From assembly GCA_964016885.1 (NCBI GenBank), contig OZ024745.1, forward strand, positions 50,344,001-50,408,000: a stretch of DNA of 64,000 nt, read 5' to 3'. Positions 51,101-54,100 of this stretch are shown here, one piece after another (position 1 is the stretch's first letter; every line of letters begins with the position of its first letter). This DNA comes from Eledone cirrhosa (Eukaryota). Made by a program: the position numbers and the translations under genes. The notes below the pieces were generated by a model that was not told the origin of the DNA, made no database searches, and was given only the letters and a program-made list of their open reading frames with translations.

Positions 51101-54100
51101 ACATTTATTATAATGCTCGGTGTGTTTGTAAACAAACATCCTGGATTAAGCTGTACAGTGTCTAGCAACCATCGTTGCTCATTTGTTCAACACTGACAAA
51201 GGAACGCTGTACTAGTTTCAAGCTTATTAGCTATCATCAGCAACGTATACCTTCCTGCAACGTATAGCTAATAAGCTTGAAACTAGTACAGCGTTCCTTT
51301 GTCAGTGTTGAAGAAATGAGCAACGATGGTTGCTAGACACTGTACGGCTTAATTCGGGATGTTTGTTTACAAACACCACCGAGCATTATAATAAATGTTC
51401 GGTGAATCCATACGTACATATATATATATATATATATATATATATATATATATATATATATATATATATAAAGAGTCAGGACCCCGACGACTGAGCTCCG
51501 GCCGTTTCGACAGCTAGATCTGAACTGTCGAAACGACCGGACTCTTTTCATATATATATATTATATATATATATATACATATATATATATATATATATAT
51601 ATATATATATATATATATATATATATATATATATATATATATATATATATATATATATATATATATATATAAATATATATATATAAATATATATATATAT
51701 ATATATATATGTATATTGTATAAAGAAAAGGAATTGAAAATGCAACTGGAGTCTTTTAAGAATATTTATTTATTTACTTTACCGGTTTCACAGTTCTTAT
51801 GATTTTCAAAAGAAAAATTGAGATAGAGGGTTTGTGTTTCTGCCGTGATTTGTCTCGCATATATGTATGTATAGAAAATAATAATTGTTTCTGCGTTAGG
51901 TACAAGGCCAGCAATTACCCAGTGCATTACTGGTACTTTATTTTATCGACCCCGTAAGGATGAAAGGCAAAGTCAACCTCGGCGGGATAATGATAACGTA
52001 TACAATGAAAAGCAATTATTTCATATAAATTATAAATATAAAAACATAATCTGTATGCACGATTATCTAATTAGTTTATATATGTGTACGTATGTTTGCA
52101 TAGATGCATACACACACAACGCGCATTCGTGTATATATATATATACGTCAATACTCGTCAATACGTCAATACTCGTCTTTTTCCATTTCTCCGAGGGTTC
52201 TTAACCCCACTATCAGGCTAAATAATTTCTTTAATTTCTTTAGTCAAAATACGGCGATAGCTTACATTTCTAATAATTTCAAACTCGCTCGCTGTTTCGA
52301 AAATATTCTTACTATATATATACATACGATATTAACAAATGGAAACTATATTTATAAAACCATATTTATTTCATTATACATATTTCAAGGACACCAAGTT
52401 AAATTATGGTGTGCTTTCATCAGATAAAATATAATATAGATCAGTTTTATAAATAAATATTGACATACCGTTAAAGAATGCAACCATTACTGTTGGAAGC
52501 TCCCGGGAGCTTCCAACAGTAAAATCCTTGAAATATGTATAATGAAATAAATATGGTTTTATAAATATAGTTTCCATTTGTTAATATCGTATATACATAT
52601 ATATATATATATATATATAATATATATATATATATATATATAATATATATATATATATATATATATATATATATATATAGGAACGAGTAGGACCCCGACG
52701 GCTGAGCTCAAGCCGTTTCGACGGCTAATTCTGGACATGAATTAGCCGTCGAAACGGCTTGAGCTCAGCCGTCGGGGTCCTACTCGTTCCTATATATATA
52801 TATATATATATATATATATATATATATATATATATACTAACGGTTTGCTATCGAAACGGTAAGAGTTTAACCGTAGGGCAGAAAAATCGTCATATCTACA
52901 CTCGGCTTTTCATAATTTATACGGAGTACTAAGTTCAATCATGGTTTTACTGGATTTAGACACTATCATCACATATAGTCACACACACACACACACACAC
53001 ACACACACACACACACACACACACACACACACACACACACACACACACACACACACACGCGCGCACACACAGGGGTGTATGTGTTCGATAGCAGGAACGG
53101 GGACTCGGAGATGTAGTGCAGTCAAAGCCACATTTACATTCTCACACTAGCTCGTGCTACACACGCGACACACTCCACTGTGACATGACACCTATTCCTT
53201 CCCCACCTCTGCCACTGCCACTACTGTTGCCGTAACATTTCCGCACCAGCTTGGCCGGAAAAGCGGGCCTGCAGGAAGGAGCAGAGATGGTGTAAGTTTA
53301 CATTTAGGCAGCATCAGTGCTGGTACAGTCACAATAACACACGTATTGAGTTCTTACTATCTGCTAGAAATAGCAGCGAAATCTCCCTCAAATCATATCC
53401 TACTTTGACATGTTAGAAATAGCAGCCAAATCTCCCTCAAATCACATTCTACCTTGATATGCAATTTCTTTTTTAATGATTTAATATTCTATAGATGTGT
53501 TTTAAAATAACAATCAAGTAATTTGAGACAGGAATCATAGCAATGGTTCTACGCCTTTACCATCTCTACACACCACCACCCTCACCACTAACACAATCCC
53601 CCCGCCACCATCACCGCTGCCACCGCCACCGTAACACCCCGCCACCACCACCACCATCAACAACAACATCATCATCACCACCACTATTGAAAATAATAGT
53701 GTTGATGTTGTGATGTTGTTACGATGTGTTCACTCCAGTTACACTCACAATACAACCAGCATGGCACTGTTGTTGTTGTTGTTGTTGTTGTTGTCATTAC
53801 TTCAGTAGCACTCGCAATACTACCAGCTTCTTATATCTACCACATCACAGAATTAACTCATCGTTTCCTATCACTCTTTCGTGCTGGTAGAAACGAAACC
53901 AGGAAATTTATTTCAAGTCTAGCAGCCGCGAGGAACTTGATATAACAGAAATGACCTCACTTTCCGATAAAAGATCCCTCACAATATATTGCTATTGTTG
54001 TTATAGTTTACACCTATATGCAAGTTTAGTTAGCTTCTTACGGGGTTGCATCTCATAGGAGATTTCTCGGGTGTTTTACTGATAGGGATCCCAGCCCTAT

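Follow-up and report, generated by a model that had tools for sequence, protein, structure and literature searches.

The window (the whole 64,000-nucleotide stretch of DNA analysed here) carries on its plus strand a PRDM13-like gene, whose protein was mapped to three coding stretches (Table 1). The zinc-finger exon at 57151–58392 shares 89% identity with an Octopus sinensis protein and 79% with an Argonauta protein; relatives that bear the name PRDM13 were found lower among the protein matches of this exon. By these matches the host is an octopod, though probably a species other than O. sinensis. The hairpin at 52680–52790 sits in intron 1, and several perfect hairpins are located within one intron of this gene. 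In pre-mRNA such a hairpin is a perfect duplex whichever strand it lies on, and RNA transcribed across the intron would carry a 52-bp duplex at this site. A SINE-like repeat (GGCACAAGGCCAGCAATT...) is present many times, in either orientation, in or near the same gene (45481–48145, 37590–38638 and 51880–51990) and is a further source of intronic duplexes.

The hairpin spans 111 bases and is paired at 52 of 52 arm positions, which bears out an earlier note on this DNA that had claimed a perfect hairpin at 52679. Its RNA fold has an energy of −113.3 kcal/mol (z −22.6) and none of 200 shuffled sequences was equally stable. Outward along the right arm the order is GAAAC, GGCT, TGAGCTC, AGCC, GTC, GGGGTC and then the end TTCC/TA, exactly as the earlier note had read the arm, that is, as the 3' half of a hammerhead. 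The element-sense 3' ends of both arms point outward (an inverted head-to-head pair), and both arms lack the tail that follows a sister copy.

Table 1. Features of the window discussed in the text.
Feature	Positions	Strand	Remarks
PRDM13-like host gene	44735–58392	+	Coding matches 44735–45142, 55448–55705 and 57151–58392
(TA)n target, left of hairpin	about 52590–52679		Sequence
Left arm of hairpin	52680–52731	−	Hammerhead 3' half on minus strand, end TTCC/TA
Loop TGGACAT	52732–52738		7 bases, homologous to centre of 10080 hairpin
Right arm of hairpin	52739–52790	+	Hammerhead 3' half, end TTCC/TA
GAAAC of right arm	52751–52755		
Helix III of right arm	52754–52772		6 bp, palindromic loop TGAGCTC
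GUC triplet (GTC) of right arm	52771–52773		
Helix I 3' strand of right arm	52774–52779		GGGGTC
(TA)n target, right of hairpin	52791–52836		Sequence
Adjacent, more distant element	52837–52980	+	5'-truncated hammerhead 3' half (GAAAC-GGT...ACC-GTA) and tail motif
Sister hairpin, homologous centre	10080–10191	+	Full hairpin, mismatches at 10099, 10119 and 10131
One-sided tail	10192–10271	+	80 bases, ACTC...GAGTAC motif, after right arm of 10080 only
Second-subfamily hairpin	51470–51547	−	Turn with 2-base AG overlap, right arm internally deleted
Second-subfamily single arm	18913–18985	−	Upstream TTAGTTCGGATC, same as in reads
Family C hairpin	40303–40461		Type I hammerhead complete in each arm; turns 39 bases upstream of GAAAC; tail confined to left arm
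Family C hairpin	39819–39930		Complete hammerheads, turn at helix I start, tail on left arm only
Family C hairpin	36130–36232		Turns immediately ahead of CUGAUGA; minus arm holds the complete ribozyme; tail confined to left arm
Family C hairpin	34959–35061		Turn inside core destroys CUGAUGA, tail on right arm only
C-terminal GIY-YIG-like fragment	2502–2792	+	Long 3' region, then (TA)n, behind it; Pfam GIY-YIG match (E 0.0048) under the curated cut-off

The hammerhead 3' half and its copies in the window

The arms of this family contain the GAAA, helix III and NUH triplet of a type I hammerhead. None of the nine window arms checked has a CUGANGA- or UUGANAA-type core within 70 bases upstream, and the same holds for the 30-base upstream consensuses from the reads (see below), so the family qualifies as hammerhead by its 3' half only. 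The one oddity of the family is that no member examined carries the first half. A separate 5' half (ACCCC plus core), sought across the window, gave scattered matches, none of them tied to the family. The 150 matches listed for the Rfam scan, out of 357, include microRNA-type hairpins below the thresholds and no hammerhead. The ribozyme half at 52680 is predicted to be inactive. The AAA and GTC showed no variant at 2% or above among the variant rows listed for the reads. Single arms and tails folded no better than shuffled sequences (z −1.4 to +1.2; the tail of the 10080 family, z 0.24).

The sister copy in the window, the hairpin at 10080, has the same centre register and TGGAC loop and different outer ends. 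Two of its mismatches (10099 and 10119) lie in the arms outside the centre and alter the GTC and GAAAC of the right arm, and the third (10131) lies beside the centre; the hairpin at 52680 has none. The earlier note had drawn this contrast between identical arms there and diverged arms at 10079; the 10080 hairpin is the older one. The 80-base tail behind its right arm had been overlooked; the first 30 bases of this tail match the tail found in about 5,000 reads per run.

The earlier note had also assigned hairpins at 51475 and 18912 to the family. The former is indeed a hairpin, with one arm deleted and with its turn in a register other than that of 52680 and 10080, whereas the latter has a single arm and is thus no hairpin. 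A weak additional match to the family was seen at 29217–29240 (21 of 24 bases, E 0.005). All four clear copies adjoin (TA)n on at least one side, and no target-site duplication is readable inside (TA)n. The subfamilies, which differ in length by two bases, have no reading frame through arm and tail in common.

Two interpretations of the centres were tried and dropped. A U.G pair in the 51470 centre had seemed to prove that helix II is native there; the reads show native upstream sequence and a 2-base overlap at the junction instead. A common turn at the TTAG/T site was abandoned in its turn, as the 52680 and 10080 centres appear to hold a few more native bases.

The copy at 18913 is adjoined by an arm (18820–18890) of another hairpin family, which turns at CTTC-T-GAAG, i.e. 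inside a CUGAAGA core, and is also found at 48259–48403 and 62727–62855.

Copies of the family in sequencing reads

Four read or contig sets were aligned to 52700–52796 at 80% likeness: two raw RAD sets (X8 and X9) and one contig set of one organism, and one contig set of a second; the RAD runs may come from species other than that of the window. Matching reads numbered 14,041 of 12.47 million and 13,845 of 12.79 million. The family is thus abundant, with about 14,000 of about 12.5 million reads matching per set. Depth was about 13,800 on the arm versus 150–370 across the centre of the 52680 hairpin, a ratio biased by the 6,294 and 6,261 reads that end at AATT at 52740, probably a restriction site, and by the poor sequencing of hairpins. 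Non-palindromic copies, the existence of which the earlier note had foreseen, make up the majority of the family in these RAD-biased counts.

At the other end of the arm, 4,996 (X8) and 5,289 (X9) of about 9,500 reads pass beyond TTCC/TA and enter one consensus (agreement 0.94–0.95), which matches the window from 10192 onward; other subfamilies carry similar tails. As about half of the reads run past it into a constant tail, TTCC/TA is an internal stop with an optional tail and not a transposon terminus. The earlier note had named constant termini with TA TSDs, typical of a MITE, as one finding that would count against its reading; what the reads present is a one-sided tail that passes the end about half of the time. 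That the hairpin is a MITE of a TA-targeting DNA transposon, its hammerhead look being due to chance or capture, is the least probable of the explanations weighed here. The near-constant TA/GGAA...TTCC/TA ends with their TA flanks would agree with such an origin, as would the resemblance of one subfamily's upstream consensus to a repeated motif (61197–61218 and 61700–61730) of an unrelated inverted-repeat element, but symmetric termini are not fixed, most copies are one-armed in the reads and whole hammerheads occur in related families. The one-sided tail largely refutes this possibility.

Upstream of the arm, loose ends in X8 fell into groups of 2,179, 1,002 and 2,069 reads. The upstream consensus of the 52680 subfamily ends ...TTTAGTCCA (2,179 and 2,278 reads, agreement about 0.5) and that of a second subfamily ends ...CTTAGTTCGGATC (2,069 and 2,153 reads, agreement about 0.7). 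The hammerhead 3' half is thereby seen to be kept across subfamilies with differing flanks. The earlier note had predicted ..CCCC plus CTGANGA directly before GACGGC in non-palindromic copies. In the 30-base upstream consensuses listed there is no CTGANGA or UUGANAA, nor GACGGC directly after such a core, and the prediction fails there. The idea that CUGANGA is missing because the palindrome turns within the preceding stem is not a full explanation, since the non-palindromic copies also lack it in the 30 visible bases; fold-back, accordingly, cannot be the sole cause of the missing core.

The centre in the register of 52680 and 10080 is crossed by 150–370 reads from about 60–80 start places. 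At the loop, one contig (X7, from the second organism) reads TTTCATTTAGTCCA in place of the TTCAT-GTCCA of the window, in which case the newly made strand may have had ...ATGAA at its end and used a nearby preceding TTC for priming, a reading that requires a 3-base difference and comes from this one contig.

Complete hammerheads in related hairpin families

Self-comparison of the window with simple repeats masked revealed many local inverted repeats. A strict hammerhead descriptor gave two hits, versus 0.05 in shuffled sequences, and missed family C, whose helix II has a U.U pair at its base. With a relaxed descriptor, adopted only after family C was seen to be missed, the window yielded 10 complete type I hammerheads, against an average of 0.13 over 30 shuffled sequences; five of them lie in family C and none in the 52680 family.

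Family C and the 52680 family have the arm layout and the ACTC...GAGTAC tail motif in common. The four family C hairpins turn at different places: three do so ahead of GAAAC, at distances of 39, 24 and about 20 bases, and one within the core; this last one (34959–35061) is an in-window model for core loss through fold-back. The motif ACTC...GAGT(A/G)C occurs 13 times in the window (mean 2.2, maximum 9 in 200 shuffles), and seven of these occurrences lie directly behind hammerhead-type arms of four families, including the one at 10200, on one arm per pair each time.

The tails bear on the possibility that a single truncated copy was inserted first and that its inverted arm arose later, through fold-back repair of a break at a (TA)n cruciform. 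Every copy lies in long (TA)n and the arms end at TA or TAT, a microhomology to the target, as such repair would lead one to expect. However, the inverted arm ends exactly at TTCC/TA, without tail and flank at 10080, and in all four family C hairpins the tail is found on one arm only, which is a described mark of PLE integration (in the portions consulted of PMC3846280, PMC8557442 and PMC11167929). We therefore regard later repair as very unlikely.

Further hammerhead-like sequences are scattered over the window. Family B, with hammerhead-like ends (CTGATGA...GAAATATGTA) in long inverted pairs, is found at 4112–4260, 29784–30480 and 52321–52595; it has a one-sided ACTC...GAGTGC tail from 30439 on, and its 52321 copy includes a 36-base perfect palindrome (52487–52522). 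In the inverted pair at 51082–51417, the minus arm holds a whole minimal hammerhead (GAAACTAGTA) and the plus arm is cut at the start of helix II. A near-perfect 282-base hairpin with a 1-base loop (54789–55070) carries the UUGAAAA core variant on both arms and has a relative at 51732–51839, with a decayed single arm at 51789. Other hammerhead motifs, some whole and some partial, in which loop III is palindromic were noticed at 19366, 22245, 50381–50626 and, on the minus strand, 62200, 56826 and 63009. In an imperfect 80-base hairpin (17281–17360), ACTC...GAGT can be read on either strand and CTGATGA on the minus one.

A probable fold-back Penelope-like insertion and the missing 5' core

Taken together, the perfect arms, the hammerhead 3' half, the constant TTCC/TA end, the one-sided tail of the sister copy, the non-palindromic relatives and the whole hammerheads of related families support a Penelope-like origin. 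With a probability of about 0.8, we consider the hairpin at 52680 to be a dead-on-arrival insertion of an endonuclease-bearing Penelope-like retroelement, in which a 5'-truncated terminal-repeat copy lies head to head with its own inverted copy in a TA microsatellite. The layout can be read directly in the DNA, whereas for the enzymatic steps we rely on the cited work. In that scheme, an element-encoded GIY-YIG nuclease would nick (TA)n and reverse transcriptase would begin at the TTCC/TA site or at the end of the tail and stop about 20–25 bases upstream of GAAAC. The strand just made would then fold back at its 3' end on a match of 2–4 bases (GAA on TTC at 52680) and be extended along itself to the TA end, the product being finally joined into (TA)n. 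The left arm, in its minus-strand reading, is likely to be the element-sense, template-derived arm, because the minus-strand loop ends in GTCCA, like the sequence upstream of non-palindromic copies; the right arm is then likely the fold-back copy.

Fold-back self-priming, the mechanism offered in the earlier note, appears to be the best one available. The turn lies just upstream of GAAAC, and in family C a turn erases CUGAUGA at 34959–35061 while the sister hairpins keep it. The centre fares differently. It had been taken for a native helix II, but the 30-base upstream consensuses of non-palindromic copies lack CTGANGA and UUGANAA, so that the 12-bp 'helix II' would largely be made by fold-back, which probably created most of the GACGGC strand of the stem; the long central stem as a whole would be mostly a fold-back product.

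The recurrence of one centre register at 52680, at 10080 and in the reads is also compatible with the hairpin being copied as a unit. The fold-back might have arisen in a master copy, on one or a few occasions, and been followed by amplification of the hairpin as a non-autonomous unit moved by Penelope proteins. The TGGAC loop shared by 52680 and 10080 despite their different outer ends agrees with this, as do the reads, of the same register and many start places, that cross the centre. Against it, copy-specific variants are common to both arms of each hairpin and differ between copies, the second subfamily (51470) turns in another register and family C at four places, and most reads have other sequence upstream; in addition, a 52-bp duplex would presumably make a poor template. 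We consider amplification as a unit decidedly unlikely.

According to the parts of Craig et al. (2021; PMC8557442) drawn on here, Penelope-like elements undergo heavy 5' truncation, have an adjacent inverted truncated copy, carry a tail of 30–40 bases on one end and target (TA)n; the elements listed there include octopus Naiads that prefer (TA)n. Palindromes at the inverted junctions of Penelope elements have been read as the result of self-priming (Arkhipova et al., 2013; PMC3846280, in part). The present family resembles the EN+ PLE insertions as presented in those portions of both papers in its palindromic head-to-head junction, one-end tail and AT-microsatellite target, with self-priming proposed there as the cause, and differs from them in the small remainder (about 55–135 bases), in the lack of a linked ORF and in a tail of about 80 instead of 30–40 bases. 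The sections consulted of Cervera and De la Pena (2014; PMC4209133) describe PLE hammerheads with a palindromic loop III, opposite-strand pairs and, in D. virilis, an intron ending at helix I. GAAAC, the palindromic loop III and the NUH triplet are common to those hammerheads and the present family; the opposite-strand pairs there are 100–700 bp apart and, unlike them, the family has a long helix III (6 bp) and no CUGANGA or UUGANAA upstream in any copy or consensus listed. For Anolis Poseidon PAc, the available portion of Frangieh et al. (2024; PMC11167929) reports that RT starts at two internal sites, one on either side of the tail, and that hammerhead mutants still insert in vitro. Two alternative 3' ends bracketing a tail downstream of the hammerhead, and an AT-rich target, are seen here too, in this case from sequence alone; the AC-rich tail hairpin is a mere resemblance and no more stable than shuffled sequences. 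Non-LTR retrozymes (bioRxiv 10.64898/2026.07.22.740005, seen in excerpt) are likewise non-coding, of hammerhead type and PLE-derived, and form head-to-tail tandems with whole ribozymes, in contrast to the inverted pair with half a ribozyme found here.

The mechanism is not new, having been proposed for Penelope elements in 2013, the layout has been described for the class, and the hairpin is mostly ordinary; as the pattern is already known, its value is modest. With at least 10 hammerhead-type hairpins or arms in 64 kb, however, turn points could be mapped by the thousand, which would put the self-priming proposal of 2013 to the test. Penelope-like elements make up 6.83% of the O. vulgaris genome, in 190 families (Bonar et al., 2026; PMC13282606, in part), 235 hammerhead matches are given for the giant squid (PMC6962438, in part), and octopus is credited with exceptionally high hyper-editing and predicted dsRNA content (PMC5625713, in part). 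Fold-back Penelope stubs could be a source of such octopus dsRNA duplexes. The strings of the family had no meaningful match in the supplement of PMC8557442, where line breaks and strand can hide matches, or in that of PMC13282606 (5,371 characters, no repeat library).

An autonomous partner (RT or a pLTR–ORF link) was not found, and pattern scans gave no matches in metagenome, viral contigs and prokaryote genomes. The GIY-YIG-like fragment at 2502–2792 is possibly the end of an autonomous Penelope-like element, unlinked to the 52680 family; no longer relatives of it were found, which is weak evidence. The region 2502–3500 comprises this fragment, about seven tandem copies of a 51-base unit and, ahead of (TA)n, the end ATGACCCTCCCAAA; ends like this one are also seen near 4717, 5900, 29600 and 47300.

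As for the 5' core, it may lie beyond the 30 bases upstream, have dropped out of master copies in which other DNA was captured, or lie beyond an intron. Some of the further hammerheads mentioned above have helix II loops of about 45 bases, which makes a distant 5' core possible in this genome. Both subfamilies keep TTAG/T(C/T)C exactly 16 bases before GAAAC, preceded by a T-rich tract in one subfamily and by CTAAT in the other; we take the T-rich tract and the branch-point-like CTAAT before TTAG to resemble splice signals. GAAAC, the GAGCTC loop, GUC and GGGGT are conserved across both. It is conceivable, if unlikely, that the hammerhead of this family is split by an intron and assembled only after splicing. 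With an upstream exon ending in GACCCC-CUGANGA-GAC(A/G)GCU, self-cleavage would depend on splicing and be coupled to intron retention, a typical feature of Penelope elements, and the family would provide a natural splicing-gated self-cleaving RNA in a retroelement. In the literature searched, with most subscription papers outside its scope, we found no paper on an intron-split PLE hammerhead or on octopus hairpins of this kind.

A hint of capture comes from the upstream consensus of the second subfamily, which shares a 12-base run and TTAGTT with 61197–61218; the 12-mer, noticed after the fact, was shared once in 300 shuffles. The run belongs to the region 60935–61765, which has 172-bp inverted arms (97.7% identical) and repeated GAGTTATTTCCCCCTGTTCTAATA motifs nearby and which looks like a DNA transposon end.

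Other repeats in the window include a 405-base hairpin (4313–4717) and nested inverted and direct duplications around (TA)n (4657–5973), with no obvious hammerhead. Two LINE-type elements with long reading frames lie on the minus strand, at 10796–15925 (Pfam RVT_1, E 7.7e-24), with an ORF1-like frame upstream, and at 23382–26095 (E 2.5e-29).
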